Positions 22,591-63,675 of a DNA stretch of 64,000 nt are shown piece by piece (position 1 is the first letter of the stretch; every line of letters begins with the position of its first letter). Position numbers and translations under genes: made by a program. The stretch is taken from the sequence record MW394391.1. One strand, given 5' to 3'. Below the pieces are notes generated by a model that was not told where the DNA came from, made no database searches, and saw only the letters and a list, made by a program, of their open reading frames with translations. This stretch comes from Klebsiella phage vB_KpM_FBKp24.

Positions 22591-24348
22591 TCAAATCCAT
22601 TGTGCCGCACGTTCACGGATAGTACGAATACTTTCCAGAATCTTCACATCGCCGTTCAGGTAAACTGTACGCATCGCGTCTCGCTCACTTCCGCGCAACG
22701 TTTCGTACTGCTCCCGAGTCAGATCGTCTTTCAGTGTTAGCGTTCCATCATCTTCACGATAGACAATCAGATACCCTTTTGCTGACTTCTTAGTACCGTC
22801 GTCAGTTTTAGGGTTCTTCGCGATGTTGTAGTGTTTACCGTTGACTTTACCGGCGGTTGCCTTCATGGCGATGCCCAGAGTGTCGCGAGTCACAAACTGG
22901 AACTCGAAACTCCCTACCCCAAAGACAACGTTAGAGCTACAGAATCCATTCTCTTTCAAACGGGAAAGGATCCGTGTCATGGTGTTGATGTTGATCGCAT
23001 CGCCATAGATCAAACCGACGTGCGGATCCAGCTCTTTATACCCAGCGGCATTTGTGGTTCCGCCGAAGATTTCCCAGAGTATCTGTACTGCACCCTTCTG
23101 CTCTTCGATAGAAATAGGTTTCCCTGTTTTAGTCGAATAGAATTGACCATCAACACAGAAAGATTCGAAATTACCAGACGTAGCATTTTGAATCGCGACA
23201 AATTTCGTAGCATCTAAAGCAGAAGCTCCCCCTAAAACGACCATCTCTTGGGAATTGTGATTATCGCCGTCCCAAGTGTATCCGCAGAGGATATGGTACG
23301 GATTCCCGGAATCTGGACGATAGACCAGTTTACCGTCACGCGCCATAATCGCATCTTTGTTTGCGATAGCTTTGGTGGTGATGGTGTCAAAGAAGTCATT
23401 CGTATCACTGACGAAGCTGAAAACGCCAGAAGGGTAAACTTCCGTGATCAGGCGTCGTTGGAATAATTCCTCCGCCTTCGAGAGTAACTCCGCTTCTGTG
23501 ACATTAGCGTATTCAGGGGTCGCCTTCAGCTCCTCTGCGTAAACTGCAATATTCAGACAGGTTACGCTGTGTTCTGTGGCTGGGACACTACCAGCGATTT
23601 CCGAGACCGATACGTCGCCTTCTGGATTATAGAAGCGATTCGCGGTCCAGACCGAAGGGAAGCTGTCGCTCCCTTTGAAATAGATCAGCTGACCTACTGA
23701 GCTGTTCGCATCGTCAAACATCCCCGACATTCCACGTAACGCGAAGTTATGTGCCTGGTAGTCAATGAACGCTTGCGCCGCACCCGTCTCGTTAGCGTAC
23801 TGCTCCAGTACACGGCGGAAGTGTAACGCTTTCGTTGCCAACACGCACGGTTTCCAGAGTTCGTTACTCCAGAGGTCTTCGAAGTAACCGGTCAGCCACC
23901 CAAAGCCGTCGACAGTGTTTTCAATCGTCAGGAATGGAACACGAATAGGGACTAATGACCCCTCCGGTACCGCACGAATTTCGAGCGGGATATAACCCAG
24001 TTCGTGCAGCTCTTTCAGATGCGTCGATTTCACCACGCCTTTACCCAGAACCCCGTCCATGTATTCGAGGTATTCAGCCTCTACCTGATTAAACGGCGTT
24101 TTGAAGAAGTTATCAAAACTCCCGACCAACCAGCGGAGCACTAAACGCTGCAGACCCATAAATACCGAACCGTCAAAGTCCAGTGGGGTATTGAAGTACG
24201 TGTGACTTCTGGCCGTCAGGTTTTCAAAGAAGCTGTCGGTACCCAGCGGTTGTTGGTTGATGTGCCCGGTTTTATAGGCGTCACAGAGCAGGAATACCAG
24301 CGGATCTTCGGTATAGAATTTTGGGTCTTTCAGTAAAGGATTGGTCAT
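22591..24348 (-). CDS. nadV: nicotinamide phosphoribosyltransferase family protein (NadV/Nampt-like; possibly Namat of NARP1)
   Basis: Nampt-family length and overall similarity. Adjacent and overlapping (ATGA) with a Prs-like gene. Confidence 0.8.
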   Translation of the reverse strand: MTNPLLKDPKFYTEDPLVFLLCDAYKTGHINQQPLGTDSFFENLTARSHTYFNTPLDFDGSVFMGLQRLVLRWLVGSFDNFFKTPFNQVEAEYLEYMDGVLGKGVVKSTHLKELHELGYIPLEIRAVPEGSLVPIRVPFLTIENTVDGFGWLTGYFEDLWSNELWKPCVLATKALHFRRVLEQYANETGAAQAFIDYQAHNFALRGMSGMFDDANSSVGQLIYFKGSDSFPSVWTANRFYNPEGDVSVSEIAGSVPATEHSVTCLNIAVYAEELKATPEYANVTEAELLSKAEELFQRRLITEVYPSGVFSFVSDTNDFFDTITTKAIANKDAIMARDGKLVYRPDSGNPYHILCGYTWDGDNHNSQEMVVLGGASALDATKFVAIQNATSGNFESFCVDGQFYSTKTGKPISIEEQKGAVQILWEIFGGTTNAAGYKELDPHVGLIYGDAININTMTRILSRLKENGFCSSNVVFGVGSFEFQFVTRDTLGIAMKATAGKVNGKHYNIAKNPKTDDGTKKSAKGYLIVYREDDGTLTLKDDLTREQYETLRGSERDAMRTVYLNGDVKILESIRTIRERAAQWI

Positions 24349-25235
24349 TTCACGCGTCCATCTTTAGCGGTTAAATAGGATTGGGTTGGTAACCCGTCGT
24401 CGGTGATGTTTTCCCACCACACGTTAGTCGAGAAAATCTGATCGAAGGCAGCGGAAAGCTCGCCTAGTCCTTTCGAGAAAATACCGTGAGTCACGAAGAG
24501 ACTGAGCGATTTCGGGCTCTGAGTACTGAGCTTTTTCGCCAGCTCAGTGAAGGTCCACCCACCATCGCAAATGTCATCAACAACCAACAGATTACGACCT
24601 TCGATATTGTCGTTGTCCAGTAGCGTAATGTCGAGGATATTGCCGGTTTTGGTATCGCGCTTTTTGTTTGCATAAACGATAGGCGCACCACCCAAGAGTT
24701 TCGCCAGCTCTTCAGTTTTCTTCGCAGCGCCACCGTCAGGGGAAACTAACACGACGTTATTCTCCCGAATCCAATTGGCCAGGAGATTAAAGACTATTTT
24801 GGACTGCTCCAGAACGACGAGGTTTTTGATCAGGGCCGGGGTGACGTTAGAGTGCGGATCGTGTATCAACACTCGGTCTGCTTTCAGGCTGTTGAACAGC
24901 TCTGCGAATACGCCGAGGGAGAACGATTCTCCTGCATTACACACGCGGTCTTGGCGTGCGTACGGGAAATACGGTACGGTTAAATGAAGTTCTGTTTTCG
25001 CCGTATATTTACCAATACGACGAATAGCATCGACCAGCAGCAGTAAGCGGACTGCCTCACTGGAAGATTTGATACTTCCTTCTATTTTAACGATACCAAT
25101 ATCGTGCGGAGGAAGACCGTGGCGATTAATTGCAATATGTTCTTCCCCGCCCGGGAACGTTAAGTTTTCATAAAGGACGGGTTGTCCATCGAACGTAACT
25201 TTAAACATTGTAACCCCTTTAAAAATGGTAAACAA
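24345..25235 (-). CDS. ribose-phosphate pyrophosphokinase family protein (Prs-like; possibly ADPR-PP synthetase Adps)
   Basis: VPYFPYARQDR and the PRPP-binding loop LLVVDDICDGGWT. Confidence 0.8.
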   Translation of the reverse strand: MFTIFKGVTMFKVTFDGQPVLYENLTFPGGEEHIAINRHGLPPHDIGIVKIEGSIKSSSEAVRLLLLVDAIRRIGKYTAKTELHLTVPYFPYARQDRVCNAGESFSLGVFAELFNSLKADRVLIHDPHSNVTPALIKNLVVLEQSKIVFNLLANWIRENNVVLVSPDGGAAKKTEELAKLLGGAPIVYANKKRDTKTGNILDITLLDNDNIEGRNLLVVDDICDGGWTFTELAKKLSTQSPKSLSLFVTHGIFSKGLGELSAAFDQIFSTNVWWENITDDGLPTQSYLTAKDGRVK

Positions 25236-25256
25236 TAATCTTCAAAATAAATATTA

Positions 25257-25796: not shown

Positions 25797-25840
25797 TGTG
25801 AGTTACCTTTCAGTGAGTTCAAAATAAAAAACAGAAACGT

Positions 25841-25850
25841 GATAATAGAG
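25841..25850 (-). promoter_or_regulatory. GTGATAATAG motif variant upstream of frd
   Basis: ~45 nt upstream of frd ATG 25796. The spacing matches the other motif copies. Confidence 0.3.
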
Positions 25851-25977: not shown

Positions 25978-27960
25978 ATGAGTACCAACTTTATATTCAT
26001 GCCAAATAATCAGTTCAGGTTGGTCGATAATGGTCGTGTCGCTAACGCTGGGAAGCTTTATATCGGTAAAGCAAACACAGATCCTACAGTCGCTGCTAAT
26101 CAGATAACCGTTACTGGTCTTGCCATTGACGGTACAAACAGTATCTTAAATCAACCAATTAATTTGGACAAGCATGGTTTCCCGTTGGACGAATTGGGAA
26201 ACGTAGTGACATTATCAGTTGACTCGCACTATAGCCTTGCTATCTTTGACGCGTACAGTAAACTACAACAATCAGTCAGTGCAGTGGAAATTAATGAGGT
26301 CGAGAGTTTTTCCTCCCTGCGTACATTACCTGTTCTCCGCGCCGGTCAAAGAGTTAGAGTGAAGGCTCATACAGCCGGAACTTCCTTGGGTGGCGGGGAG
26401 TTTATCGGTGTGTTGGGTACAAAAGCTGATGACGGCGGCGTTGTGGCCTCAGGTAGCGGCTTTTACTGGGTGAGGGTTATCAACGGTGTGGTAAATGTCG
26501 ATAACTTCGGCGCGCGGGGCGACGGGAGTGCAGACGATACTAACGCTATTCTCGCCGCACTTAACTACGCCATTGCTAATGGTATCTCCGTAGAGTTTAC
26601 CGCGAATAAAACTTACAAGATTACCGGCAGTACCGGGCTCAGTTTTGATATTGGTAAAATTTCCGTTGGTTGTTACAATGGTCGGGCTAAGCTGGATTTT
26701 AGCGGCTTCACTGGTACTACCGCTATCAACGTTTATTCTTCGTTAACTTATCCAACCTCCATGTACAGAAATACCACAAACCGTTTAATAGGACTGGAGG
26801 TATTTGGTGGGTTAACTACCGGGGTAAATGGGTTGTTAGTCGGTAATGACACTTACGATTACAACGGTCAAACTATTATTCAAAACTGTTCGTTCTTCCG
26901 GTTTGATAACGTGGTACTTTGCGCGAAGAATACGTGGCGAACCAAGTTTATCGCTTGTACGATTTCTACCGGGATAAGTAATATATTTTACGCGCCATCT
27001 GGTATTCTTAATTCTGGTGAAAGTATTACATTTAGCGATTGTCAGATTAGTGATTCTAATAACGCCCCTTTCACGGTTGCTTGCTCAAACTTCGCGATCG
27101 GCTTTATTGGTTCGTCGGTATTGAACACTCGATTAGTCATCAGCGGTTCGGGTAGCGTTGTCAGTATCGAAGGGATGAGTAATTTTGAAAACCCCAATGC
27201 CAAAAACTACTATCGGTTTGCTGAAGTTACCGGCGCCGGAGCGCGGCTGATTATCAGTTACTCAACGGTGGTCTGTAACACCCCTGCTATCCAAACAAAA
27301 CCACTATTTTACGTAGGGGCAAACGCATTCATCATTTTCAATGGAGTTAAACTCCAAGGTAATAGTTATCCTTTCGAATTGGATGCTACAGGACCAGGTA
27401 ACCGCCGGTGGATAGAAGGACCAGGATTTGTTTTTGCCACGGGCTGTACTTGTGATATTCTTTCTGGTGCAGGTAATATCCCGCTACATGAATCATTATC
27501 GCCGATTCGAAATTGGGATTTTGAAAGTGGTGATTTGAGTGACTGGGCTATTAATAACTCAGGATCTTCTGCTCAAACCGCGGTAGTATCGTCGACTTCC
27601 AGTAAAGTAGGTACGTATGGTTTACGGTTAACGTCAGTTAGCGGATTGAATATCTTCGCTACGTCTACATTTAGCGTGAAACCGGGTAGGTACTTCGCCA
27701 CCAGTTTCTGGGGACGAGTTGTTACGGCTAATGCCGGGGCAACGTCTGCAGGTAACTTAACACTCAGTTTTAAAACGGACGCAGGCGTGCAGATTAATGC
27801 ATTAACTGCTAATCTTCCTTCGAGTGTTACCGACTGGGCAGTTTACGGTGCCTTCATTCAGGGAGTTGTCCCACGTGGTGCTGCGAGAGCGGAGATTTCT
27901 TTACGAGCTTCTCAGGGCGCAGTTGTTGACTTTGATTCGGTTCTTTTCAATATGTTTTAA
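25978..27960 (+). CDS. tailspike/depolymerase with a pectate-lyase-like beta-helix and a C-terminal carbohydrate-binding module (660 aa)
   Basis: VDNFGARGDGSADDTNAI (pectate-lyase-3-like). C-terminal CBM4/9-like jelly-roll signature. Strong AGGAG RBS. Confidence 0.7.
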   Translation: MSTNFIFMPNNQFRLVDNGRVANAGKLYIGKANTDPTVAANQITVTGLAIDGTNSILNQPINLDKHGFPLDELGNVVTLSVDSHYSLAIFDAYSKLQQSVSAVEINEVESFSSLRTLPVLRAGQRVRVKAHTAGTSLGGGEFIGVLGTKADDGGVVASGSGFYWVRVINGVVNVDNFGARGDGSADDTNAILAALNYAIANGISVEFTANKTYKITGSTGLSFDIGKISVGCYNGRAKLDFSGFTGTTAINVYSSLTYPTSMYRNTTNRLIGLEVFGGLTTGVNGLLVGNDTYDYNGQTIIQNCSFFRFDNVVLCAKNTWRTKFIACTISTGISNIFYAPSGILNSGESITFSDCQISDSNNAPFTVACSNFAIGFIGSSVLNTRLVISGSGSVVSIEGMSNFENPNAKNYYRFAEVTGAGARLIISYSTVVCNTPAIQTKPLFYVGANAFIIFNGVKLQGNSYPFELDATGPGNRRWIEGPGFVFATGCTCDILSGAGNIPLHESLSPIRNWDFESGDLSDWAINNSGSSAQTAVVSSTSSKVGTYGLRLTSVSGLNIFATSTFSVKPGRYFATSFWGRVVTANAGATSAGNLTLSFKTDAGVQINALTANLPSSVTDWAVYGAFIQGVVPRGAARAEISLRASQGAVVDFDSVLFNMF

Positions 27961-32058: not shown

Positions 32059-32499
32059 TTAGGGATAAATTCCGTAAGATTCCCACTCTACCAAACCCAC
32101 GGGCGTCAATAAACCCCGTCCAATTTCCTGCTCCCGATCTTTCTGTTTATCCTTTTCAGAAAAGTCGTCAATGCGCATTAACCTATTTGATGCCAAAAGG
32201 TGATTCCCTTTATTCCCGCACAGGCTTTCGTAGTGGATAACTTTAGGGGAGATTGTACGCACCCCTTCGTCAGTGTTAAAACTTAGTATAGCTGTAGTAC
32301 TAAGTTCCCCCTCCAATAACCATAGCGTTTCCGTTGTGTCCCCTGTTCCGCGAATTTTCTGATCGTGGTTTAAAAAGAAAATATGAATTTTTTCGTTTTT
32401 AGGTATTAATTCCACAACCCTGACTACTTTCCCGACGTTATCAAGGTGTTCGGGGTCGCTGATCACGAGCGCTAAACAACCCGCCTCGATTGGTTTCAT
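32059..32499 (-). CDS. hypothetical protein (146 aa)
   Basis: ORF. Confidence 0.5.
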   Translation of the reverse strand: MKPIEAGCLALVISDPEHLDNVGKVVRVVELIPKNEKIHIFFLNHDQKIRGTGDTTETLWLLEGELSTTAILSFNTDEGVRTISPKVIHYESLCGNKGNHLLASNRLMRIDDFSEKDKQKDREQEIGRGLLTPVGLVEWESYGIYP

Positions 32500-32876
32500 G
32501 CGCGTTTCTCCTGTGTAAGGAAATACTCGCGTATTCCTTCGGCTAACGGACCGAAATCGGATACCAACTGTAACAGAGCTAGTTGGTCATCGGTCTGCCG
32601 TAGTCGTTCTAACCCGATACGCGGTGGTGTTAGTCCTACCTCAGTCAGTTCCAATTTACCGAGATAGATCTTTGTCTGCCCGCGATCGAGAAAGGCGTGA
32701 AAGGACAATTCCGGCCCAGTAGCAAGAATCAGCCCATCAAAGGGATTCTTCCCGCTATACACGCTTTCCCTCTGAAAATGGAAAGACGCCGCCACTTTCT
32801 CGCCTTCCCCTAATTCCTTTTGACAATGTTTTAACCAACGTTCAGTCAATTCCGCTTCTTTGAATTTAAATTCCAT
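32496..32876 (-). CDS. hypothetical protein (126 aa)
   Basis: AAGGAG RBS. A terminator lies upstream. Confidence 0.55.
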   Translation of the reverse strand: MEFKFKEAELTERWLKHCQKELGEGEKVAASFHFQRESVYSGKNPFDGLILATGPELSFHAFLDRGQTKIYLGKLELTEVGLTPPRIGLERLRQTDDQLALLQLVSDFGPLAEGIREYFLTQEKRA

Positions 32877-45260: not shown

Positions 45261-46952
45261 TTATTCCTTTGGTTTTTTACCGGTGATGCGCAATGTGACA
45301 GGTTGCCAAATACCGCGTTCGGTGGCAGCGTGTTCTGCGCGTTGTAGAATAGCCGCTGTATCTGGCCATTCTGTAATAACAGGAAGAACTTCTTTGAGAG
45401 GGATGTCCATTTTCAGTTCATCTCCCTCAAACCACGCTTCACTGTTATCCGCTAACCATTCCGAATTATCAATGGTAACAGCGATTTTTTGATCCGCTTT
45501 TCGAGCAAGGTTATCCACGAGGATGTCGGCATATCCGGTAAGGAGTTCGCGGTTTTTCACCGACTCTTCGGAACTGAAAACTCGCCCAGAATGAATCGAC
45601 CAGAACTCCGCGCCAAAGTGGGCGTATCCGCTAACCTTACGCTCTCCTTTGAGGCCGGACGAACCAAAGAAGCGAATAGCCGGGGAACTTAAAAAAGCTC
45701 GCCAGCGCATTGCATCGCGTAAAAGGTCGGTAGAAAGCGGCTTTAATTTAAAACCATCGGGGTCTTTAACATACTCGCCATCTAACGTCTGGCGGAAGTA
45801 TTCGATGTCTTGTTCGGTTAAAGGTCTGAGAGTTACTGCGCCGCCGCCGTTCTTCAGATCAACGACAAGTTTACCATCTTCCTTAGAGAGGGCTCCGGTT
45901 CCTGGATCAAACCCATAAATTACCGGCGCAGGAGAATTGTCTTTCTCCGCCCGCAAAGCACGATTTTCCGATTGCTTTTGAGTCAACCGGTCATCCGTTG
46001 CTTCTTTCTCCAGCTCTGCCAAAGACTCTCTAGCTTGTCGTTGACGGGCCAACTCTTCACGGATAAACCCCTGAAGTTCCTCTGACGTTTCTGTTAGCGA
46101 GATAACGTAGTGATCGTTCTTACTGGGGGTATCCTTCAGATAAAATCCTAGCGGGTTATTAAATTCGTTATGAAAAATAACCGATATGGTGTCACCAACA
46201 GATTTAACACTGATTTCCTTAATCGGTCCGTAATAATCCTGACCGTTCAGCGTTTCATAAAGCGACCGAATTTCATCCTCAATATCTTCATTGAGTTGTG
46301 CTTTAGGGTAAGGAGCAGTCATTCCCGGCTCCATTATTCCCCAGTCCCACTCTACGATCTCTTTTATTTCCCGAGGTACTCTATTGGACAAGTTGTTCTG
46401 TAACGATCTGATTGATTCTTCAGTCGCCAAAATAACATGGTCGCTACCGGGGAGGATTACCCCTGCGCGACCTTCTAAACCCAGGTAATCTTTTACCAGT
46501 CTACGTGTGTCGAGGGTAAATGAATTTGGCCCGCATTCGATAATCGGGTTAAAACCCACAGCGCTGATCTTTCTGCGAAGGTCAGCGAGTTCCTGGGCCA
46601 TCCGGCGTACTTCGTACATGAAAACAGTACACCCTTCCGGTTGAGTGGGAAGTGTTTGGTAGTATTCAATACGGCTCAGGGGGAGTTGGTCTTGTTTGTC
46701 CATTTCAACCTCAGTGAGTTTGTCTAATAATGCGATTTCGTTGTAAGCACCAAATACAGTCTCAAGACCATATTTGAACTCATGAATTTGGTCGATAGGT
46801 AGTTTGCCGTAAAAGATATAATCGATATCGTTTTTCGGTTCGCAGATAATCCCACCTAACGCCTCAATGCGTTTAGCGTATTGCTCACGGGTAAAACGAC
46901 TAAACTCACCGACGAGCGCAATGTTCATCTTCTCTAAGCTTTCACCTGACAT
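45261..46952 (-). CDS. large hypothetical protein with a BRCT-like N-terminus, adjacent to rtcB (563 aa)
   Basis: N-terminal IALVGEFSRFTREQYAKRIEALGG is a BRCT-like pattern. Internal KEDG tetrapeptide. Its stop abuts the rtcB start. Confidence 0.55.
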   Translation of the reverse strand: MSGESLEKMNIALVGEFSRFTREQYAKRIEALGGIICEPKNDIDYIFYGKLPIDQIHEFKYGLETVFGAYNEIALLDKLTEVEMDKQDQLPLSRIEYYQTLPTQPEGCTVFMYEVRRMAQELADLRRKISAVGFNPIIECGPNSFTLDTRRLVKDYLGLEGRAGVILPGSDHVILATEESIRSLQNNLSNRVPREIKEIVEWDWGIMEPGMTAPYPKAQLNEDIEDEIRSLYETLNGQDYYGPIKEISVKSVGDTISVIFHNEFNNPLGFYLKDTPSKNDHYVISLTETSEELQGFIREELARQRQARESLAELEKEATDDRLTQKQSENRALRAEKDNSPAPVIYGFDPGTGALSKEDGKLVVDLKNGGGAVTLRPLTEQDIEYFRQTLDGEYVKDPDGFKLKPLSTDLLRDAMRWRAFLSSPAIRFFGSSGLKGERKVSGYAHFGAEFWSIHSGRVFSSEESVKNRELLTGYADILVDNLARKADQKIAVTIDNSEWLADNSEAWFEGDELKMDIPLKEVLPVITEWPDTAAILQRAEHAATERGIWQPVTLRITGKKPKE

Positions 46953-46954: not shown

Positions 46955-48199
46955 TTACCCCTTCACGCAGACTATTTGTTTCAACGTAAAAAGAACTTCC
47001 ACGAGATCGTCTTGCGAACGCATTACATCGTCAATGTTCTTATACGCTTTTGGTGTTTCATCGATGACATCTTTGTCTTTGCGGCATTCGACGCCTTCAG
47101 TGTCACGTATTTGATCTTCTACTGTGAAGACACGTTTTGCTTCTCCACGGGACATCAGACGACCGGCGCCATGGGAACACGAGCAGAATGATTCTGAATT
47201 CCCTTTCCCGCGTACCACAAATGTTTTTGCACCCATCGACCCGGGAATAATAGCGAGATCGGTTGTCCTGGCTCTGACCGCCCCTTTACGGGTAACAAGG
47301 ACGTTTTGATCAAAGTGATTTTCCAGCGCAACGTAGTTATGATGACAATTGATGGCGGTCACTTTATTCTCGAAGGGTTTTTGTAAAACCTTATGCAGCG
47401 CAATCAGTGTTGCATTGAGCATAATGGCGCGGTTTACAGCCGCGAAGTCCTGTGCCCATTGCACAGCTTCTAGGTAGTCTTTGTAGTAGACCGACCCTTC
47501 CGGTAAATAAGCCAGGTCGTCATCAACTAAATGGATAAAGAAACGCGCCATTTCTTCCTTTGCTTTCTCAATGAAGAAACGACCAATTGCGTTACCTATA
47601 CCGCGAGAACCGGAATGAATTACTATCCAAAGTGAGTCATTCTGGTCGAGTGATAATTCAACAAAATGATTGCCGCTACCCAACGTTCCTGCGTGTGAAG
47701 CAAAACGGTTCGCGTTACGTAACAGAGTAGGGTATTTATCAGTGATGAACTTCAAGCGATTCTCTAATGAGACTAACTCGGCTTTAAGCTGTAGCGTTAA
47801 GTTTTGAGGGTCATTATTACCCCACGCTCCCCGGTCGTTCGGCCCACCGTTATCGGTACGGCCATGGGGGATGAGTTGTTCAATCGCGCTACGAATACCG
47901 GAAAGATCTGTTGGTAAGTCCTCGCGTTTTAACGATGTCTGTTGACCCACCAACCCGCAACCAATGTCAACACCAAGCGCAGCAGGAATAATGGCCCCCT
48001 TTGTTGCAATGACAGAACCTATTGTCGCACCCATCCCCCAGTGGACATCGGGCATGACTGCGATATGCTTGAAGATAAACGGTAAGGTAGTGAGGTTATG
48101 AAGTTGTTTTTCTGCCTGCTCTTCCACTGGGACAAATTTTGTCCAAGATTTAATGTTGACTTTGTCACCTTTAATAAAAACAATATTTGAATCTGACAT
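46955..48199 (-). CDS. rtcB: RNA-splicing ligase RtcB
   Basis: MPDVHWGMGATIGSV. NCHHNYVALENH (conserved His-rich active site). ~414 aa. Confidence 0.9.
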   Translation of the reverse strand: MSDSNIVFIKGDKVNIKSWTKFVPVEEQAEKQLHNLTTLPFIFKHIAVMPDVHWGMGATIGSVIATKGAIIPAALGVDIGCGLVGQQTSLKREDLPTDLSGIRSAIEQLIPHGRTDNGGPNDRGAWGNNDPQNLTLQLKAELVSLENRLKFITDKYPTLLRNANRFASHAGTLGSGNHFVELSLDQNDSLWIVIHSGSRGIGNAIGRFFIEKAKEEMARFFIHLVDDDLAYLPEGSVYYKDYLEAVQWAQDFAAVNRAIMLNATLIALHKVLQKPFENKVTAINCHHNYVALENHFDQNVLVTRKGAVRARTTDLAIIPGSMGAKTFVVRGKGNSESFCSCSHGAGRLMSRGEAKRVFTVEDQIRDTEGVECRKDKDVIDETPKAYKNIDDVMRSQDDLVEVLFTLKQIVCVKG

Positions 48200-48213: not shown

Positions 48214-48933
48214 TTATTTAACCATGTTACGGCATTGTTCCAGAGTGAAACCTTTCTCCATGAGATCGGCCACCATGATTTCATGTTGCATTTTATACTG
48301 CTCAAACAACACTTTTATCTCAACAACAGTACCCGCGCTGTCTACTAGTTTAACCGTGAAAGATTCTTCGTTGACGGCGTACGTATTGGTTACAAAGAAC
48401 TCCTGTAACGCTTTTAAAATCAACCCCATTAGAAAGAAGTTGGGTAAATCCAGAAACAGATCGTGATACTCCGTAAGTCCCTTGCCCCAACGATAATAAA
48501 TATCAAGGACATCTACGTTTGGCCCAGAAAAAGATATCGGACCACCTTCGTTTTTCTTTATCGTGATCACGTTCTGTTTAAGTATAACCTCCTTAAAGAA
48601 AATCTCATTAAACAAAGCGCGGTCGTAATGGTAGGGAAGAATTTTAATTTGGAAGCAGGATTCCAAATCCTCTCCGGGTAATTCGTTGACCATAGGGTAC
48701 ATGGCACGTTCCCAGTAACTATTTTTATCGTCACCTACTTCTTTTACGGTGTCGAGATAGGAAAGCCAACCCCGTAGAATGGAGTCAAACACGGGATTAG
48801 CGAAGAAGTCGGGGACAGTTGTTACTATCTTCTCCAACCTGTCAAGGAACGCCCCAGTCATCTCAAGTGGGTCAGTGTGTTCTCGATTCTCGTCCGGATC
48901 AACATCTGTTTGCGCTAATAAATTAAAGTCCAT
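48214..48933 (-). CDS. hypothetical protein (239 aa)
   Basis: ORF. Confidence 0.55.
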   Translation of the reverse strand: MDFNLLAQTDVDPDENREHTDPLEMTGAFLDRLEKIVTTVPDFFANPVFDSILRGWLSYLDTVKEVGDDKNSYWERAMYPMVNELPGEDLESCFQIKILPYHYDRALFNEIFFKEVILKQNVITIKKNEGGPISFSGPNVDVLDIYYRWGKGLTEYHDLFLDLPNFFLMGLILKALQEFFVTNTYAVNEESFTVKLVDSAGTVVEIKVLFEQYKMQHEIMVADLMEKGFTLEQCRNMVK

Positions 48934-51318: not shown

Positions 51319-51657
51319 ATGAATATGAGACTGGACGACGGTATTCTAACTTTCTTTTGCCCGGGTTGCGAGACCACCCATTCTGTTTCGGTCGAACCAA
51401 CTGACCCTTGTTACTGGACGTGGAATGGGTCGTTAGAGAAACCAACGTTATCTCCGAGTGTTTTGACCCGCTCCGGTCATTACGTGGACGGTAGTCATGG
51501 TTGCTGGTGTAACTATTATACCGCGCACCCGGAAGAAGAAGTTGTCTTTAAGTGTTATCGCTGCCACAGCTTTATCCGCGACGGCAATATTGAATTCCTT
51601 TCTGACTGCAGCCATAAATTGGCAGGGCAGACTGTTCCTTTAGATCCATTAAAGTGA
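51319..51657 (+). CDS. Cys-rich (zinc-ribbon-like) protein on the plus strand (112 aa)
   Basis: CPGC, CWC and CYRCH motifs. A plus-oriented terminator hairpin follows. Confidence 0.4.
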   Translation: MNMRLDDGILTFFCPGCETTHSVSVEPTDPCYWTWNGSLEKPTLSPSVLTRSGHYVDGSHGCWCNYYTAHPEEEVVFKCYRCHSFIRDGNIEFLSDCSHKLAGQTVPLDPLK

Positions 51658-51666: not shown

Positions 51667-51667
51667 G

Positions 51668-51693
51668 AAACAGGGTCGATACGACCCTGTTTC
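51668..51693 (+). terminator. terminator hairpin (plus-oriented)
   Basis: AAACAGGGTCG-ATA-CGACCCTGTTT followed by CCGTTTGT. Confidence 0.55.
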
Positions 51694-51704: not shown

Positions 51705-53096
51705 CTAACCCACTTTTTTCATAGTAGAATAACTGACCGCTTCCACGGGTTTAGTGACATCATATTCCCGCAAGGCAATTTCAAAGGTCTCAGGGCTATG
51801 TTTATTTAACATGAACAACGCCTGTACTGAGGCACCCGGTAAAGGCGGGAAAGGAACTGGACTACGGGGTTCTGCATCAGGAAACGCCATTTTGAAGAAG
51901 CGGCGAATCTCTTTGTCCCCCAGAACTTCAACCTCTACACGAATGTCAATTCTACCATCCCTTAGAATTGCATCGTCCAGTTTCTCAGGGTGATTCGTGG
52001 TCAAGAACACAATGACATCATTCAGACGCATTACGCCATCTAGTGCGTTGAGGAAATCAGACAAACTCCCATTCAGGTATTCGTCCATTGCCTTGTCGTC
52101 TGATTTCGTTTCTTCTAATGTCCCCGGTACCCCGTGAGGCATTTCGATAACATTCAACCCAGACGACTCTTTTTCCTTTTCTTTTAATTCAACTATTGTC
52201 TTTTCTTTACTGCGTGCTTTCGTAAAAGAGTAAGTATCAATATCCTCGATGATGACAACACCACCCGCCGCGCGCTGGAATAATGCCTGATATTGTAATC
52301 CGCCGCTCGGTTTAAGGGTATGAATGTTACGACCTAAAGCCCCAGCCAGTGCGGAAATAAGACTGCTCTTACCAGTGCCAGGTAGCCCATAAAGTAATAC
52401 TGTAAATTTATAAGGTAATCCCCGCGAATGGTACCACTCTTTACTCCGACTAAATTCAAAGACGGGTTCAATCAATCCTTTTTGTACATTATCAGTAACA
52501 ACAATAGTGTCCAGGCTCCGCTTAGGGAGACGGCAGAGGTATTCCCAATTGGCGGTATTGTTGACAAATGCACCGACTGTATTTTTAGTGTCACTTTTCA
52601 CCATGAACGCATCCATCAGTTCGAGTATTGCCTTATGGCTTCGCCCAAACTTACTGATACTCAACCGGTATTTAGAAGCATTAGACGCATTGGCGTCTAT
52701 TTCAATGATTTTAAATACAAAGAGCGTACCGCGATAGAAAAAGAAATGAGAACCCACACCCGGACCTACCGCGCCGTCCGTCCCACTACTTTCCCCATCG
52801 ATAGTAATCGTTCTGCTCCAGTGAAACCAACTGTTCAATGAGAACCAATTAAGGAAGGCAGTGTACTGCTCTGAGTTATAATTAGTCCAGTTGGTGCTGG
52901 CAGTATTGAAAATCAAACTGGTAACGAATTGCCTTTTAACCCACTGAATCACCGCTTTGGGGGTTTTGATTAAACCCCAACCGATTGCGCCTGAGACAGC
53001 TAAAGAACTCGCAGTAACAATCGCGTTCTGTGCCATGGGGTAATCTTTAAAGTTAGACAATATATGGTCGTAAAACGACATTAGCTGTTCAAGCAT
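51705..53096 (-). CDS. AAA+ ATPase, BCS1-like (463 aa)
   Basis: LLYGLPGTGKSS. LNALDGV..VIVFLTTNHPEKLDDAILRDGRID. Confidence 0.8.
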   Translation of the reverse strand: MLEQLMSFYDHILSNFKDYPMAQNAIVTASSLAVSGAIGWGLIKTPKAVIQWVKRQFVTSLIFNTASTNWTNYNSEQYTAFLNWFSLNSWFHWSRTITIDGESSGTDGAVGPGVGSHFFFYRGTLFVFKIIEIDANASNASKYRLSISKFGRSHKAILELMDAFMVKSDTKNTVGAFVNNTANWEYLCRLPKRSLDTIVVTDNVQKGLIEPVFEFSRSKEWYHSRGLPYKFTVLLYGLPGTGKSSLISALAGALGRNIHTLKPSGGLQYQALFQRAAGGVVIIEDIDTYSFTKARSKEKTIVELKEKEKESSGLNVIEMPHGVPGTLEETKSDDKAMDEYLNGSLSDFLNALDGVMRLNDVIVFLTTNHPEKLDDAILRDGRIDIRVEVEVLGDKEIRRFFKMAFPDAEPRSPVPFPPLPGASVQALFMLNKHSPETFEIALREYDVTKPVEAVSYSTMKKVG

Positions 53097-53166
53097 TGAT
53101 AATCTCCGTTACACTGGTCTGGTCGTAGCATAAGGTTACATTCCGCCGTAAAAAGCAAAAAAAAAA

Positions 53167-53190
53167 GAGGAGGGAAATCCCTCCTCTTTT
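53167..53190 (-). terminator. rho-independent terminator
   Basis: GAGGAGGG-AAAT-CCCTCCTC flanked by A10/T4. Confidence 0.75.
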
Positions 53191-54172: not shown

Positions 54173-54646
54173 TTAACCCTCAAACCGATAGACGATAATT
54201 TCAAAATCAGTATCCGAAAAAACCCGCTTGATATTTTCACTCACGCGCTCCCAGTCACCACCTGCTAACCCGCACCCCAATAGAGGGAAACCGACTTTTA
54301 AAACCCTCCCTTCCTTTTTCAGGATAGAGGCCATTAGTTTCAACGCCAGATAAAGAGCAGCGTAATGGGTTTTATAGTCAGGGTGCGAATGTTCGTGATG
54401 AAATTGACCACAAAGGTTGAAGCCCCATTGATTCCCATTCTTAGCAGCAGTTAATTTCCCCAAGCGTTTGTTGTAAGGGCGCTTATCGGAAAAGTAAGAT
54501 TCCGCTAACCAAGGCAATGCTTCGAATATTTTAACAGCAATACCGCTCTTAGCGACCCCAAAGCAATTGACTTGGTGGGCTATGACGTCAACTTCCTTAT
54601 TAAGAAAGGCTTCAATCAAATCCCCTTTTATTTCAGTGTATTTCAT
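54173..54646 (-). CDS. macro domain protein (ADP-ribose binding/processing)
   Basis: VDVIAHQVNCFGVAKSGIAVKI and GFPLLGCGLAGGDWE match macro-domain signature regions. Confidence 0.65.
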   Translation of the reverse strand: MKYTEIKGDLIEAFLNKEVDVIAHQVNCFGVAKSGIAVKIFEALPWLAESYFSDKRPYNKRLGKLTAAKNGNQWGFNLCGQFHHEHSHPDYKTHYAALYLALKLMASILKKEGRVLKVGFPLLGCGLAGGDWERVSENIKRVFSDTDFEIIVYRFEG

Positions 54647-54664: not shown

Positions 54665-55282
54665 TTAATTGATGATGAATTTACATTTTTCGAGGTGGTA
54701 TTCTTTCCCGCCAAAGCAGAGTTTCTTAACGTAATCCGGACGAGGGAGATTAACGTTCTCTGTGTAGGCGTTATGGGATACTAACGACTTGTTAACGACT
54801 TCGCCTTTGTTGTATTCAACGAGCCGACCGGGGAATTCTTGGGAAAAACCAAACCCCGAGAATTTCAATTTTACATGCGAATGAAAAGAGAGATTTCGCC
54901 AACCTGGGAATTTCAACCCTTTCACGTGGGCAGCGATAAAACGAATCAACGCAGTGTAAACTTTACCCAGTTCACCCGTGGTAATGACTTCGTCTTCGTT
55001 ACCGAAACGGAAGATGACTTTGGAATCGTGACCATCTTTATTACGGTACCAGTCGACGACAAAACGAGAGTAGTAACCGTAGAGACCATTCTCTGGCGTA
55101 CTGCGGTTACGGTAAGACTGCGCCGTATCGGAGTCGTACCGGTAGCACGTATTGTGCTCAAAAGGCTGACCCCGTCTGAAACCGATGAACTGCGCGAGCT
55201 GGACCGCCTGGATTAATGTCAGGTGTACGATCGTACCTAACTTGTTAGTAAGAATAAAGATAGGACTTGAAGCTGTTTGCAT
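54665..55282 (-). CDS. hypothetical protein (205 aa)
   Basis: ORF. Confidence 0.5.
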   Translation of the reverse strand: MQTASSPIFILTNKLGTIVHLTLIQAVQLAQFIGFRRGQPFEHNTCYRYDSDTAQSYRNRSTPENGLYGYYSRFVVDWYRNKDGHDSKVIFRFGNEDEVITTGELGKVYTALIRFIAAHVKGLKFPGWRNLSFHSHVKLKFSGFGFSQEFPGRLVEYNKGEVVNKSLVSHNAYTENVNLPRPDYVKKLCFGGKEYHLEKCKFIIN

Positions 55283-57579: not shown

Positions 57580-57584
57580 AGGTT

Positions 57585-57893: not shown

Positions 57894-58024
57894 TAGATTA
57901 CTCCACCCCAAACAATCGCCGCCGCAAATAACCACCAACCCCAGCTATGTTCCCCGTGAAAGAAACCATAGCCTCCAATACCGATTAACACTAAACTTAA
58001 AATACCGGCCATGAAATATTTCAT
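57893..58024 (-). CDS. small membrane protein (43 aa, MKYFMAGILSLVLIGIGGYGFFHGEHSWGWWLFAAAIVWGGVI)
   Basis: ATGA overlap with the TS stop. Two hydrophobic helices. Below the ORF-track cutoff. Confidence 0.4.
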   Translation of the reverse strand: MKYFMAGILSLVLIGIGGYGFFHGEHSWGWWLFAAAIVWGGVI

Positions 58025-59412
58025 ACCGACACCTCTATTTTAATCGCAGGGTGGTGTTTGTATTCCGTGAAGACGAAGTCCTCAAAGGTGAGTTCAAATA
58101 ATCCTTTCTTTGGAACGACCACCGCCGAATCGTAATAGTGCTCAGAACGAACAAAACATTCTACTGGTTTATACGGCTCACGAGTAAGCTGTAATTTCAC
58201 TTCCTCGATCTGGTTAAGGTAGATATGGACGTTAGTCAGATTACCAACCAACTGTTTTGGCGCCATCCCCAACTCATGGGCAAAGGCCAGTAACATGAAT
58301 GCGTAGAACGCCTGGTTATACGGTTCGCCGACGGGTAAGTCCACGGAACGCATTGAGTACTTAAGACTCAACCACTGCGTAGGGACATGATTCTCAGTGA
58401 GCCACTCCGCTTTACGTTCTGCCGACATCTTAGGTTGATTACAATGTTCTTCTGCGTAGCAGTCGGACATGTGATCTTCCCAGAGATCCTGGAAGTACGG
58501 GTTAGCGTTATTCGCGCACCAATCCAAACGCTCGCGCAGCGTCATCTCTTCCACGTAGAACTCTACGAGGAAATGACAGGGAGTGAGGCACGGTTTTCCG
58601 TTGATAACGTTTTCCTGCGGTGTCACCTTTACCGTCTTAGTTCGCGGTACCCCGTGACTGGCCAGAAAATCTTCGCAGTTATCGGTCTTACCGTGATCTT
58701 CCAGGCGCGGCCAGAAGATCGCATAAAGGTCCGGGCTGTGGGTTTTTAAATGTTCCCACATCTCGTCATTAGTGAGAGTAACTTCTTTCGTTTCCTCTGG
58801 CATCCAGAGTGGGTTCCACGCCGAGATGAGAATCCGGCGGGATTCTGGATTGTTCCGCAGCAGGTCTAAAACATATGCGACTTGATCAACGCCTTTCTTC
58901 TTAAGCGGGTCTTCCGAGAAGTTTCGCCAGGCGCTACCATACGGCGCATTCAGATCATTTACGTGATGTGCGATTACCGAGCGCGTACGCGGTACGTTAT
59001 GCGAATCCAACCACACGTGACCCTCTTCGACTGGGCGAATAGAGATCTTCTTACTGAAGAACTCGATGTACGCATCTTCGTTGTTTTCTTCCAGCCAACG
59101 CAAACGCTCGTAATTCTCCAACTCCACTTCCGTAGAGACGTTTTCCTTCAACCGCCACGGCGCCCAGAAATCCCCTTTCCCGTCCTCGGTGATCATCGAC
59201 TCCATATGGAGCTCACCATTAAGGATAGAACGGAACTCTCGCCAAGCCAGTTTACGAGAAACAAACTTTGTGGTGAGTAACGGGAACTCACCTTTTGATA
59301 GATCGTATTTTAATCTGGCATCAAAAATACCGATAGTCCCTGTCCCGGTACGATCGCCGCGCACTCGTCCTGTTTCCAAGACTTCCTGGAGTAATTCAAG
59401 GTATTGTTTCAT
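58021..59412 (-). CDS. thyA: thymidylate synthase homologue with three large insertions (463 aa)
   Basis: N-terminus MKQYLELLQEVL..GDRTGTGT. RRILISAWNP. The PCH nucleophile motif. YSMRSVD. PYNQAFYAF. C-terminus HHPAIK. Confidence 0.8.
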   Translation of the reverse strand: MKQYLELLQEVLETGRVRGDRTGTGTIGIFDARLKYDLSKGEFPLLTTKFVSRKLAWREFRSILNGELHMESMITEDGKGDFWAPWRLKENVSTEVELENYERLRWLEENNEDAYIEFFSKKISIRPVEEGHVWLDSHNVPRTRSVIAHHVNDLNAPYGSAWRNFSEDPLKKKGVDQVAYVLDLLRNNPESRRILISAWNPLWMPEETKEVTLTNDEMWEHLKTHSPDLYAIFWPRLEDHGKTDNCEDFLASHGVPRTKTVKVTPQENVINGKPCLTPCHFLVEFYVEEMTLRERLDWCANNANPYFQDLWEDHMSDCYAEEHCNQPKMSAERKAEWLTENHVPTQWLSLKYSMRSVDLPVGEPYNQAFYAFMLLAFAHELGMAPKQLVGNLTNVHIYLNQIEEVKLQLTREPYKPVECFVRSEHYYDSAVVVPKKGLFELTFEDFVFTEYKHHPAIKIEVSV

Positions 59413-60560: not shown

Positions 60561-60582
60561 AATAAAACAAGACGGAATAAAA

Positions 60583-60610
60583 AGAGAGGGGGAGATTCCC
60601 CTCTCTTTTC
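60583..60610 (-). terminator. rho-independent terminator
   Basis: AGAGAGGGG-GAGATT-CCCCTCTCT flanked by A/T runs. Confidence 0.7.
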
Positions 60611-61209: not shown

Positions 61210-61213
61210 TTTA

Positions 61214-61699
61214 TTACCTTCCTAGATTAAAGAGTGATTGTAAAGGGCTCAGTAATGGTTTCTTGTAGTTTCGATAGACGATCTCGATTGATAACTTTGC
61301 TCCGGATTTGGAGGTCAAAAGAAGTACATCTGAAATGTATCGGGTTTTCAGGAGCTTCTTCTTCTGATAAATCTCAAGAACTTTCTCGGCTTTCTCGTCG
61401 ATAAGGTAATCGCTATCTAGCCTTACTCGAATTTCTTTCAGTGCATTAGTTCGAATCGCAAGTTGAAAGTCGATAGAGAGTCGAGGCGCTGTCACCTTGA
61501 CAGACCCTTTCTCCCCGATACCGTTCTTCAACTTCTCATGGAAAGCAACGCTGGCTGATTTGTCCCGTAAATATTCGGTGACTTCGTCTATCGTCTTGGA
61601 GATAACAGCGATCAGTGCGATCTCTAGACTTTGGGGTTCTTCTTCCACCGGTTCTTCAAGTGATTGAAACAATTTAGCAAGTGGGTCGGCTGAGGTCAT
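61214..61699 (-). CDS. hypothetical protein (161 aa)
   Basis: ORF. Confidence 0.5.
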   Translation of the reverse strand: MTSADPLAKLFQSLEEPVEEEPQSLEIALIAVISKTIDEVTEYLRDKSASVAFHEKLKNGIGEKGSVKVTAPRLSIDFQLAIRTNALKEIRVRLDSDYLIDEKAEKVLEIYQKKKLLKTRYISDVLLLTSKSGAKLSIEIVYRNYKKPLLSPLQSLFNLGR

Positions 61700-61722
61700 T
61701 TTTTACTCCTACTTTTATCAGA

Positions 61723-62133
61723 TCAAATCCAACGATCGTTAGGGCGAATAAAGGTTTGGAAAACGCCGTACCACCAACCGTCGTCTTTCAAAACGGGTTG
61801 GAAGTAGGCAGAACGCCGCATTGACCCGACCTGATTTTTCCCTGCAGCAATAATATTCTTGTACCAAATAGTGCGTAGTACTGCACTAGGAAGCTGGAAT
61901 TTCCCGCCCACTAAAGGACGGTCGTAATTTTCCCCTACACGAAAACGAAACCTACCATTGTTAGGCTCGTATTCAAAGTCGATAGTATTGTTTTCCCCCT
62001 CTTCTAATCCCCAGAGAAATGTCTTTGATAATGAACAGTCCGAATCGCGCGACAGTCGAATGTAAGGTACTGTATAGACTTGCTCACGCGGAGTAGAGGT
62101 AGTGGGAGTATATGGTATCTTGATAAAAGGCAT
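61723..62133 (-). CDS. hypothetical protein, paralogue of 59636..60031 (136 aa)
   Basis: Conserved block IDFEYEPNNGRFRFRVGENYDRPLVGGKFQLP. Confidence 0.5.
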   Translation of the reverse strand: MPFIKIPYTPTTSTPREQVYTVPYIRLSRDSDCSLSKTFLWGLEEGENNTIDFEYEPNNGRFRFRVGENYDRPLVGGKFQLPSAVLRTIWYKNIIAAGKNQVGSMRRSAYFQPVLKDDGWWYGVFQTFIRPNDRWI

Positions 62134-62163
62134 GTAATTCTCCTTGACTAAAAAATAAAAGAA

Positions 62164-62187
62164 TAGAGGGGAATTAATTCCCCTCTA
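62164..62187 (-). terminator. rho-independent terminator
   Basis: TAGAGGGG-AATTAATT-CCCCTCTA. A6TA4 lies upstream on the plus strand. Confidence 0.65.
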
Positions 62188-62192
62188 CGTTA

Positions 62193-62570
62193 TTAGCAGA
62201 CGATCGAATCAACGAACAGTGCGGTATTGCTGCGAGTCGGCTGAATTTGCTTTTCGATGGTCGGGAAGAATTTACCGGCGGCGTTAATGAAAAGAAACGC
62301 GGTGTCTTTCTCGCCGCGACCTACTTTTTCGGCCGATAGAACACTAACCGGGAAAGGAACAACTTTGACTTTATCAATCACTGCCGGACCAAGGTAAAGC
62401 TCGATCATTTCCGCAAACTTTTTACGGGTCGCTGGATCACCGTAAACTTTAATTGTTTTCCCTTTTACCAGGTTATTGAGAATGAACGCTGCGTAGTGAA
62501 GCAGCGCTGTATTGTTGAAAGTACCTGTAACGCGGATCGATTGAATTCGTTTCATTTCGTGAACACCCAA
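62193..62570 (-). CDS. hypothetical protein (125 aa)
   Basis: ORF. Confidence 0.45.
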   Translation of the reverse strand: MGVHEMKRIQSIRVTGTFNNTALLHYAAFILNNLVKGKTIKVYGDPATRKKFAEMIELYLGPAVIDKVKVVPFPVSVLSAEKVGRGEKDTAFLFINAAGKFFPTIEKQIQPTRSNTALFVDSIVC

Positions 62571-63109
62571 TAAACACTGTAGAAGTTGATCGCATGAATA
62601 CCGGAAGAGAGGGTATCAAGTTCCCCTAGGTCATCAGGGTCAATAAGGTTGACCTTTAACCCTGTCGCCAACAAACGTTTCAGATTGTAAGCCACGGCTG
62701 TCTGAGGAATCCGAAACGTAATCGCTTGTTGGTTTCTGAAGTGACTAACCAAATCGCGAGGGGCATCACCTAAACGTTCTAGATACTTAGCGAACGTTTC
62801 GCCATCTAACCCGTCTAACGACCACTGCCAAACGACACCGTCTGCCGCAACGACAGCCACTCCTTTATAACGATACGGTTTTTGGTATTCTCCCCATTTG
62901 ATACTCTCTGGCTGATAGCAAGAATTGTAATCTGTGATCCTCAGTTCTTCGCCAGGTTCTGCTTCATCGACCATTTCAGCAAAAGCGGGAAGGAGAATAG
63001 TCTCACCGGCAGCGTTTTTAGCATGGGCGACAATTTCACCCTCAGTGAGCCCATAAGCATCAGCTGCGTAAACCCCACGTTCAAACTTCAATTTTATCTG
63101 CTGAGTCAT
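62552..63109 (-). CDS. hypothetical protein (185 aa)
   Basis: ORF with a 4-nt overlap with the Tpt1 gene. Confidence 0.5.
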   Translation of the reverse strand: MTQQIKLKFERGVYAADAYGLTEGEIVAHAKNAAGETILLPAFAEMVDEAEPGEELRITDYNSCYQPESIKWGEYQKPYRYKGVAVVAADGVVWQWSLDGLDGETFAKYLERLGDAPRDLVSHFRNQQAITFRIPQTAVAYNLKRLLATGLKVNLIDPDDLGELDTLSSGIHAINFYSVYWVFTK

Positions 63110-63675
63110 TCTTTCTTTTCCTCTATTTTAAAACAGCCAACCGGAACGTGCCTGACTAACCAGACCCCGTTCAACGCTTTGTAGAACACGTAGCCGAGCT
63201 CAATTAATTTCTCGGCATCTACGCTCAGTACCACGAGAGAGCCTTTCTTAGCGTACCGTAAACCCACTAACCGCGCCGTCTCAATGTGATCGGTCAAATG
63301 GACAAACTGACGAGATTGCGGATTGAGTCCGTTCTCAAAAATGCTCTCTAAGTTACCCGATGCGGTACCGTGGTACAAAACCCTAGGAGGGGTCTCTTTG
63401 CTAAAAGACATTTCATTCACTGGGAAAGAATGCCCTTGTACCGCTCTGATTGCCGAAAGGTCTTTGGAAAGACTGAATCGTTTCTTGTCGTCTGTTTCAA
63501 CGACGTACATTAACTCCTCTAAACTGACCTCTTTTTTCTGCTCACTGAAAGCAGCAATAAGATCGTCGAGTTTTACATATCCAAATTCGTCCGGCGTTAA
63601 TTTCAATGCCTGAGGGCGATGACGTAAAACAAAACAGAGCGTTTTAGACAGTTTAATGGGGTCATTCATTAGCAT
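63106..63675 (-). CDS. kptA: RNA 2'-phosphotransferase Tpt1/KptA
   Basis: LSKTLCFVLRHRP. IRAVQGHS. LYHGT. FVHLT. NGVWL. ~190 aa, typical of bacterial KptA. Confidence 0.8.
   Translation of the reverse strand: MLMNDPIKLSKTLCFVLRHRPQALKLTPDEFGYVKLDDLIAAFSEQKKEVSLEELMYVVETDDKKRFSLSKDLSAIRAVQGHSFPVNEMSFSKETPPRVLYHGTASGNLESIFENGLNPQSRQFVHLTDHIETARLVGLRYAKKGSLVVLSVDAEKLIELGYVFYKALNGVWLVRHVPVGCFKIEEKKE

Follow-up and report, generated by a model that had tools for sequence, protein, structure and literature searches.

The question raised by this stretch of DNA is whether the ADP-ribose (ADPR) and RNA-repair enzymes that it encodes form one metabolic circuit. The window, by which we mean the whole 64,000-nucleotide stretch of Klebsiella phage vB_KpM_FBKp24 that was analyzed (record MW394391.1), carries between positions 22591 and 63675 genes for a Tpt1-type RNA 2'-phosphotransferase, two macro-domain proteins (macro1 and macro2), the RNA ligase RtcB, and the enzyme pair Adps and Namat, together called NARP1. 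A sequence-only reading had proposed that these enzymes work as a closed circuit, in which Tpt1 consumes nicotinamide adenine dinucleotide (NAD+) during RtcB-coupled RNA repair, the macro proteins convert its product to ADPR, and Adps and Namat rebuild NAD+, leaving repair NAD+-neutral. Our analysis argues against such an integrated unit, since the genes are scattered and have been gained and lost independently, and suggests that they are probably independent counter-defence and auxiliary genes that do not make up a single circuit. The individual components, and the one supported link between them (from a macro protein to NARP1), are already known; what is new is NARP1 with an unlinked phosphatase of the Adpp family in a nucleus-forming Klebsiella jumbo phage. 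The phiKp24 genome paper makes no mention of Namat, Adps, RtcB, macro, or Tpt1 genes (PMC8386662).

The record closest to the window in a phage collection is Klebsiella phage vB_KpM_Centimanus (~300 kb), with 95-96% nucleotide identity over ~80% of the region. The Centimanus record encodes a nuclear shell protein (chimallin shell), the tubulin PhuZ, several split RNA polymerase beta subunits, and a tRNA cluster. Given the shell, PhuZ, and the split RNA polymerases, the lineage is therefore nucleus-forming and transcribes with its own polymerases, and the phage of the window is a phiKp24-like, nucleus-forming Klebsiella jumbo phage. Families were assigned by a Pfam scan of every open reading frame (ORF) of the window, run as concatenated pseudo-proteins. 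All of the enzymes named in the proposal are indeed encoded here with intact catalytic motifs, and the region is bounded by the stop of the Namat gene and the start of the Tpt1 gene. The genes concerned, together with the one that heads the NARP1 block, are the following:

22591..24348, minus strand: Namat (nicotinamide ADP-ribose transferase, the second NARP1 enzyme), with PF04095 (5e-25) and PF18127 NAMPT_N
24345..25235, minus strand: Adps (ADP-ribose pyrophosphate synthetase, Prs-like, the first NARP1 enzyme), with PF00156 and PF13793
25257..25796, minus strand: dihydrofolate reductase (DHFR), heading the DHFR-Adps-Namat block 21 nt upstream of Adps, with PF00186 (4e-30)
46955..48199, minus strand: RtcB, an RNA 3'-phosphate/5'-OH ligase, with PF01139 (4.6e-119, 398.8 bits, profile positions 1-426)
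54173..54646, minus strand: macro1, an Adpp-family macro protein and predicted ADP-ribose 1''-phosphate phosphatase, 33% identical (2e-21) to Adpp of Vibrio phage Gary
60610..61209, minus strand: macro2, a Macro_2/YMR087W-like macro protein, with PF14519 just under the Pfam cut-off
63106..63675, minus strand: Tpt1/KptA, an NAD+-dependent RNA 2'-phosphotransferase, with PF01885 (3e-41, 141.8 bits against a cut-off of 26)

Are these genes physically a unit? They do all lie on the minus strand of one region, as the sequence-only reading had stressed, but this is uninformative, since the minus strand holds 103 of the 108 genes called in the window and the region is part of a long, leftward-transcribed accessory gene array. 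The six circuit genes are spread across 41 kb with 62 other genes between them: successive components are separated by 36, 12, 10, and 4 genes, over gaps of 21.7, 6.0, 6.0, and 1.9 kb. In addition, opposite-strand genes and terminator-like hairpins are found within and at the edge of the region:

22549..22578: 12-bp hairpin directly after the Namat stop, with a T-rich tail on the minus strand, a terminator-like end of the NARP1 block
25978..27960, plus strand: tailspike gene (Head_binding PF09008, 5.6e-13; beta-helix), which cuts the NARP1 block off from the other circuit genes
51319..51657, plus strand: DUF6527 gene between RtcB and the macro genes, with its own hairpin at 51667-51693
53163..53190, minus strand: 12-bp hairpin with a T-run, terminator-like, intergenic between macro1 and RtcB
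62163..62188, minus strand: 11-bp hairpin with a T-run, terminator-like, intergenic between the Tpt1 block and macro2

With these opposite-strand genes and hairpins, and with the gene losses and low Tpt1 co-occurrence described below, the genes form neither a single operon nor a co-inherited module. A scan for sigma-70 promoters stayed at background level. Such a scan does not apply where a phage transcribes with multisubunit RNA polymerases of its own, and the hairpins alone were used. The tailspike has a P22-type head-binding domain; the Centimanus tail protein differs, is in the other orientation, and shows 48% identity over 264 aa only, and this site beside the NARP1 block looks like a host-range cassette swap.

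Nor does the chemistry support a closed circuit. By established enzymology, RtcB uses GTP to ligate a 5'-OH end to a 3'-phosphate or 2',3'-cyclic phosphate end, and the clean 3'-5' junction that results carries no 2'-phosphate and involves no NAD+. RtcB therefore supplies no substrate for Tpt1. Conversely, removal of a terminal 2'-phosphate by Tpt1 leaves an end that RtcB cannot join. Coupling of Tpt1 to RtcB-dependent RNA repair is therefore not expected. The chain from Tpt1 to the macro proteins, as first written, also skips a step, as a 2H cyclic phosphodiesterase has to act on the Tpt1 product before a macro protein can. In yeast, the by-product of tRNA splicing is processed along a route consisting of Tpt1, the 2H cyclic phosphodiesterase Cpd1, and the macro phosphatases Poa1 or YMR087W. 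The window resembles this route in having a Tpt1 with its catalytic tetrad, a Poa1p-like macro protein, and a YMR087W-like macro protein, but differs from it in that neither a Cpd1-type 2H enzyme nor a Trl1-type ligase was found. Specifically, no 2H, LigT, or CPDase family member was detected in any window ORF or in the Centimanus products sent to Pfam, and none is annotated in Centimanus. Nor did the Pfam scans of the window yield a source of 2'-phosphates (a Trl1/plant-type ligase or a 2H end-healing enzyme), and no such ligase that makes 2'-phosphate junctions or 2H enzyme is annotated in Centimanus, where the only end-processing seen consists of a polynucleotide kinase and a DHH phosphoesterase.

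Phage RNA-repair networks that combine KptA and macro domains, with the 2H cyclic phosphodiesterase as the bridge, have been predicted for jumbo phages (Iyer et al. 2022, PMC9503650), and the same work ties phage RNA repair to an NAD+/ADPr network and to NAD+ salvage genes. The phage studied here is similar: besides KptA and macro domains, this jumbo phage encodes an RNA ligase. It differs in that the ligase is RtcB, which requires no 2'-phosphate removal, that no 2H enzyme was found, and that the genes are not neighbours. Of the proposed sequence from Tpt1 through the macro proteins to Adps and Namat, the step from macro protein to NARP1 is well supported and has already been published as NARP1-AP, while the step from Tpt1 to a macro protein lacks its bridging enzyme.

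The third line of evidence is co-conservation across relatives, a check proposed along with the circuit, and its outcome speaks against a shared unit. When all window proteins were compared with the complete Centimanus genome by local tblastn, Namat, Adps, macro1, and Tpt1 were 97-99% identical (Namat 99%), while RtcB, macro2, and the ORF at 61214..61699 had no match anywhere in that genome, with flanking genes being 95-100% identical. The absence of RtcB is a clean one-gene indel between the conserved flanks 45261-46952 and 48214-48933, which are 15 bp apart in Centimanus. The closest RtcB homologues beyond the clade are found in Erwinia Agricanvirus jumbo phages (71% identity), and RtcB is a variable, independently acquired accessory gene. 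Within the clade, which comprises ten distinct genomes in 11 records, Tpt1, Namat, and macro1 are each present in 10/10 genomes, macro2 in 9/10, and RtcB in 3/10, and the complete six-gene set occurs only in phiKp24 and three near-identical genomes.

To the same effect, among the 50,697 phage records of the collection, Tpt1 is matched in 96, RtcB in 706, Namat/NadV-like proteins in 2003, Adpp-like macro proteins in 2206, and Macro_2-like proteins in 45. Co-presence was counted with chimeric tblastn queries, a genome with both parts being a record with two separate matches. Tpt1 shares a record with a Namat-like gene in 11 cases, all of them clade records, with at most 3 more, and with an Adpp-like macro gene in 13 (the 11 clade records plus two others). 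In Ea35-70, Y3, and phiCD211, the neighbours of Tpt1 are all hypothetical proteins, and none of those annotated over 6 kb is a macro, NARP, or RtcB protein.

Some observations weigh against independence and should be set beside this evidence. Tpt1 and RtcB share a record in 25 of the 96 Tpt1 records (3 from Klebsiella, 15 from Erwinia Agricanvirus, and 7 inferred to be Clostridioides phiCD211-like, of which 4 are listed), compared to ~1.3 expected from the raw RtcB frequency, a figure uncorrected for genome size or phylogeny. All of our counts are similarly raw: they depend on tblastn thresholds, with small differences between searches, include redundant records, and ignore phylogeny. The order NARP1-macro1-macro2-Tpt1 is kept in all ten relatives despite frequent indels, which is compatible with a functional link but does not require one. 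Finally, the chemistry of the Tpt1 by-products is compatible with that of NARP1, and a salvage route into NARP1 is therefore conceivable. As for the Tpt1/RtcB overlap, it is limited to three lineages of large phages, and Tpt1 occurs without RtcB in Simmy50, in all Y3-like phages, and in 7/10 clade genomes, so that the pair is separable in both lineages where this could be checked.

If the genes are independent, what would each of them do? We begin with NARP1, which was described as the pair of Adps and Namat and defined as a translationally coupled Prs-like/Nampt-like gene pair (Osterman et al. 2024, bioRxiv 10.1101/2024.02.11.579819). This architecture, a single operon in which a Prs-family gene adjoins a Nampt-family gene, is what we observe here: the Adps stop and the Namat start overlap by 4 nt on the same strand, and the DHFR-Adps-Namat trio is kept in all clade relatives. 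Adps is related to Prs structures (2e-19). Vibrio phage Gary has a validated Adps, to whose N-terminal part the protein is 36% identical (5e-14), with a DPHS motif common to both. The best match of Namat in the PDB is the SPbetaL1 Namat (9W5X/9W5W, 3.6e-117), compared to ~1e-45 for Nampt structures. The catalytic-core Arg is kept as R344 in the motif RPDSG (equivalent to R306), and the selectivity-clamp helix GVGSFEFQF keeps both aromatics (F481 and F485, corresponding to F392 and Y396), which separate Namat, a user of ADPR pyrophosphate (ADPR-PP), from Nampt, a user of phosphoribosyl pyrophosphate (PRPP) (PMC12774641). Judged by its closeness to Namat and by these residues, the Nampt-like protein is assigned to the Namat type.

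The pair thus agrees with known NARP1 in its two-gene operon, in having 9W5X as the closest solved relative, and in the catalytic Arg and clamp-helix aromatics. It differs in the DHFR gene that heads the block and in the size of Namat, which at 585 aa is 94 aa longer than the crystallized 491-aa SPbetaL1 enzyme, with two insertions (at residues ~267-295 and ~358-416). Its clamp loop also differs and is longer, containing the four-residue insert YFNT. From its homologues, Adps would pyrophosphorylate ADPR with ATP, and Namat would join ADPR-PP and nicotinamide into NAD+. The DHFR-Adps-Namat block would then act as a self-contained unit that restores NAD+ after its depletion by SIR2, TIR, and similar defences of the host.

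Near this block, a 92-aa ORF (21772-22050, minus strand) lies next to a gene for a 504-aa protein (20199-21713, minus strand) and is a 42%-identical paralogue of that protein's N-terminal domain; no family match was found for either protein.

The macro proteins raise the question of how ADPR might reach NARP1. Both genes fall just under the Pfam cut-offs (macro1 at 19.1 vs 22 bits, macro2 at 26.4 vs 27 bits), and both encode real macro domains. The family motifs AHQxNCF, GIA, GQ(F/Y), and GCGLAGGDW of macro1 are common to six NARP1-associated macro proteins. Its relative from Vibrio phage Gary was purified and tested as an ADP-ribose 1''-phosphate phosphatase (bioRxiv 10.64898/2026.01.28.702374). 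According to the same study, the RES-domain defence aRES, cloned from K. pneumoniae among others, converts NAD+ into nicotinamide and ADP-ribose 1''-phosphate, which NARP1 cannot use, and phages that add an Adpp macro phosphatase (NARP1-AP) overcome aRES. We therefore consider it most likely, because of homology and of genome-level co-occurrence, that macro1 acts in a NARP1-AP system, where it would strip the 1''-phosphate from the product of RES-type NADases such as aRES and provide ADPR for NARP1.

With respect to NARP1-AP, the phage has homologues of all three enzymes, a translationally coupled Adps/Namat pair, and a macro protein with Adpp motifs, and its host genus is known to carry aRES. 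The difference lies in the arrangement: the published macro genes are within two genes of NARP1, while macro1 is 28.9 kb and 48 genes away, with two plus-strand genes between it and Adps. Osterman et al. (2026) looked no more than two genes away from NARP1 and reported a macro gene in 15% of cases (bioRxiv 10.64898/2026.01.28.702374). In our collection, Adpp-like and Namat-like genes share a genome in ~900-1150 records, vs ~87 expected if they were independent (~tenfold). Because this genome-level co-occurrence is high, we think that unlinked arrangements are frequent, and non-adjacent NARP1/Adpp pairs may be far commoner than the 15% obtained from operon neighbourhoods. A comparable logic is seen in RyDEP, a phage RyR-domain glycosidase that converts cyclic ADPR signals into ADPR for NARP1 (bioRxiv 10.64898/2026.05.28.727677): an accessory enzyme turns an ADPR derivative into ADPR for NAD+ resynthesis. 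RyDEP belongs to an unrelated protein family and acts on another substrate; no homologue turned up here, and none was sought.

The remaining enzymes would act separately from NARP1. RtcB has the metal-ligand and nucleophile motifs of its family (DIGCG, GSGNHF, HSGSRG, CHHNY, and SHGAGR) and matches RtcB structures in the PDB; it would reseal the 2',3'-cyclic phosphate and 5'-OH ends left by host nucleases in RNAs, probably tRNAs. Tpt1 matches the Runella Tpt1 structure 7KW8 (9e-41) and keeps its tetrad (R18, H19, R66, and R122, corresponding to R16, H17, R64, and R119). It would be a further independent enzyme that acts on RNA 2'-phosphates or ADP-ribosylates 5'-phosphates. Its by-products could leak into the macro1 step only if another enzyme opened the cyclic phosphate, and nothing indicates that such leakage is a selected function. 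The Tpt1 ORF overlaps its neighbours on both sides, both without known function; one of them, translationally coupled to Tpt1 (62552..63109), has a shallow alignment and a model with a mean predicted local distance difference test (pLDDT) score of 38. A PHROGs search with ten neighbours without known function returned nothing informative.

An alternative for the macro proteins, and for macro2 in particular, is that they erase ADP-ribosylation from nucleic acids or proteins, either reversing DarT-like or other defences or balancing the ADP-ribosylation of 5'-phosphates by Tpt1. The fold of macro2 is certain (AF2 model with pLDDT 94.5), and its top Foldseek matches include DarG (5m3i at 1e-7; also 5m3e), YMR087W (2.6e-7), Poa1p (3e-5), and viral macrodomains. 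Against the yeast YMR087W structure 1njr, macro2 scores 1.7e-6 when its sequence alone is compared and 5e-11 when a profile of its family is used; YMR087W is the yeast ADP-ribose 1''-monophosphatase. Homologues of macro2 carry PF14519 or PF01661, with G39, N40, G43, D46, G47, G48, and D50 invariant (the GNSxG...GGFD loop), and no sequence relation between macro2 and Adpp was found.

Several facts suit a role as an eraser. The macro2 gene is four genes and 1.9 kb from Tpt1, and LR756500, the sole non-clade Tpt1 phage with a macro2-like gene, has both within 17 kb. Tpt1 enzymes of bacteria and mammals ADP-ribosylate 5'-phosphate ends, a modification that macro hydrolases undo (PMC12678800, PMC6582358). 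Moreover, macro1 has sequence matches to OARD1/TARG1 (OARD1 in the PDB at 5e-7) and to DarG. In the OARD1 alignment, however, macro1 has Gln81 (in CGQF) and Ala128 (in GCGLAGG) at the positions of the catalytic Lys and Asp of TARG1 (K84 and D125). A DarG/TARG1-type activity of macro1 was rejected on this ground, and the protein clusters with phosphatase-type Adpp proteins. In addition, Centimanus has lost macro2 and kept Tpt1, a macro2-like gene is found in only 11 of the 96 Tpt1 records, and the Pfam scans detected no ADP-ribosyltransferase besides Tpt1 in the window. On balance, we regard erasure as an unlikely role for these proteins.

Many phage records label macro2 homologues as "tail protein" or "tail assembly-like", and macro2 itself matches PHROG 14717 ("tail protein"); this label is probably a propagated annotation artefact. 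The ORF upstream of macro2 (61214..61699, 161 aa) has no family match and forms with it a two-gene cassette, in place of which Centimanus has an unrelated 164-aa ORF. A third Macro protein is encoded elsewhere in Centimanus (32246-32692 of its piece, PF01661 at 7.8e-10), as are the polynucleotide kinase and the DHH phosphoesterase mentioned above.

How, then, does the closed circuit itself compare with independent genes? In its favour, every named enzyme is present with an intact active site, its last two steps are a demonstrated pathway in other phages, and the gene order and the Tpt1/RtcB overlap given above agree with it. Moreover, Tpt1 yields nicotinamide and an ADPR derivative. These points are outweighed by the missing cyclic phosphodiesterase and 2'-phosphate source, by the mismatch between RtcB and Tpt1, and by the distribution of the genes, with Tpt1 meeting Namat-like genes in one clade only, the full set restricted to phiKp24 and three near-identical genomes, and RtcB and macro2 dispensable in Centimanus. 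Furthermore, Tpt1 turnover is stoichiometric with RNA 2'-phosphates, and countering NADase defences is a sufficient known reason for the presence of NARP1. Taken together, we find the closed circuit very unlikely.

A wider loop, in which ADPR cyclic phosphates are salvaged in this clade, was also considered. A cyclic phosphodiesterase would open the ring, after which both macro proteins, acting as phosphatases, would supply Adps and Namat with ADPR again. The attraction of this scheme is that ADPR-PP decays spontaneously to ADPR cyclic phosphate (Osterman et al., bioRxiv 10.1101/2024.02.11.579819) and that this decay product and the Tpt1 product are the same molecule class. If true, the loop would make NARP1 leak-proof and Tpt1 incidentally NAD+-neutral. 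Candidate ring-openers are the protein encoded at 19627..20154, host ThpR, and an HD phosphohydrolase that the relative encodes two genes upstream of its Tpt1, and we give the scheme as a whole little credence.

The first of these candidates came from a motif scan for paired H-x-T/S in the window, which returned two proteins. One, encoded at 54665..55282 beside macro1 (HLTL), was rejected as a 2H enzyme, since its His20 is Gln in a homologue and its family has only 3 members. The other, encoded at 19627-20154 on the minus strand and 2.4 kb from the NARP1 block, is a 175-aa member of a widespread uncharacterized family (PHROG 10766; 251 cluster representatives), which occurs stand-alone or fused inside proteins of up to 1749 aa. 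All members of this family share H4-x-S6, Y75, and E107, and at least 90% of them keep D101 and T105 of the motif D-A-H-x-T-x-E. These motifs resemble the paired H-x-T/S of 2H phosphoesterases, but searches of Pfam and the PDB gave no match and no detectable 2H homology.

The last alternative, that the Prs-like/Nampt-like pair performs ordinary NAD+ salvage via PRPP and nicotinamide mononucleotide (NMN) together with pnuC and nadR, so that more NAD+ is available to the replicating phage, and without any ADPR economy, draws on the Prs and Nampt family membership of both proteins, on some NMN-forming activity kept by Namat enzymes (PMC12774641), and on the position of pnuC and nadR in Centimanus, ~8-10 kb beyond Tpt1, but is highly improbable given that the second protein is far nearer to the crystallized Namat than to Nampt and keeps the aromatics for ADPR-PP specificity, that the translationally coupled pair fits the published definition of NARP1, and that the Prs-like protein resembles a validated Adps.

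Other genes of interest lie near the circuit genes. In the part of Centimanus that corresponds to sequence right of the window end (264000-299730), the HD/PDEase-like phosphohydrolase stands two genes upstream of kptA, and PnuC (a nicotinamide riboside/NMN transporter) and NadR (an NMN adenylyltransferase plus kinase) would give this type of phage another, independent route to NAD+. The window encodes two AAA+ ATPases on the minus strand. Centimanus lacks the one at 42725-44029 in the corresponding place and encodes only a 31%-identical paralogue at another site. The one at 51705-53096 is BCS1-like, with BCS1_N, and 100% identical in Centimanus. A thymidylate synthase homologue (58021-59412, minus strand) has 463 aa vs the 266 positions of the Pfam profile, which it matches in two separated parts, with insertions of ~190 aa.

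A closed circuit, if true, would make viruses self-sufficient in their metabolism in a new way; the evidence presented here points to counter-defence genes that are known and separable. What the locus suggests is that a nucleus-forming Klebsiella jumbo phage appears to carry NARP1-AP with its phosphatase unlinked from the operon, an arrangement to be considered when one predicts which Klebsiella phages used in therapy will evade defences that deplete NAD+, aRES included.

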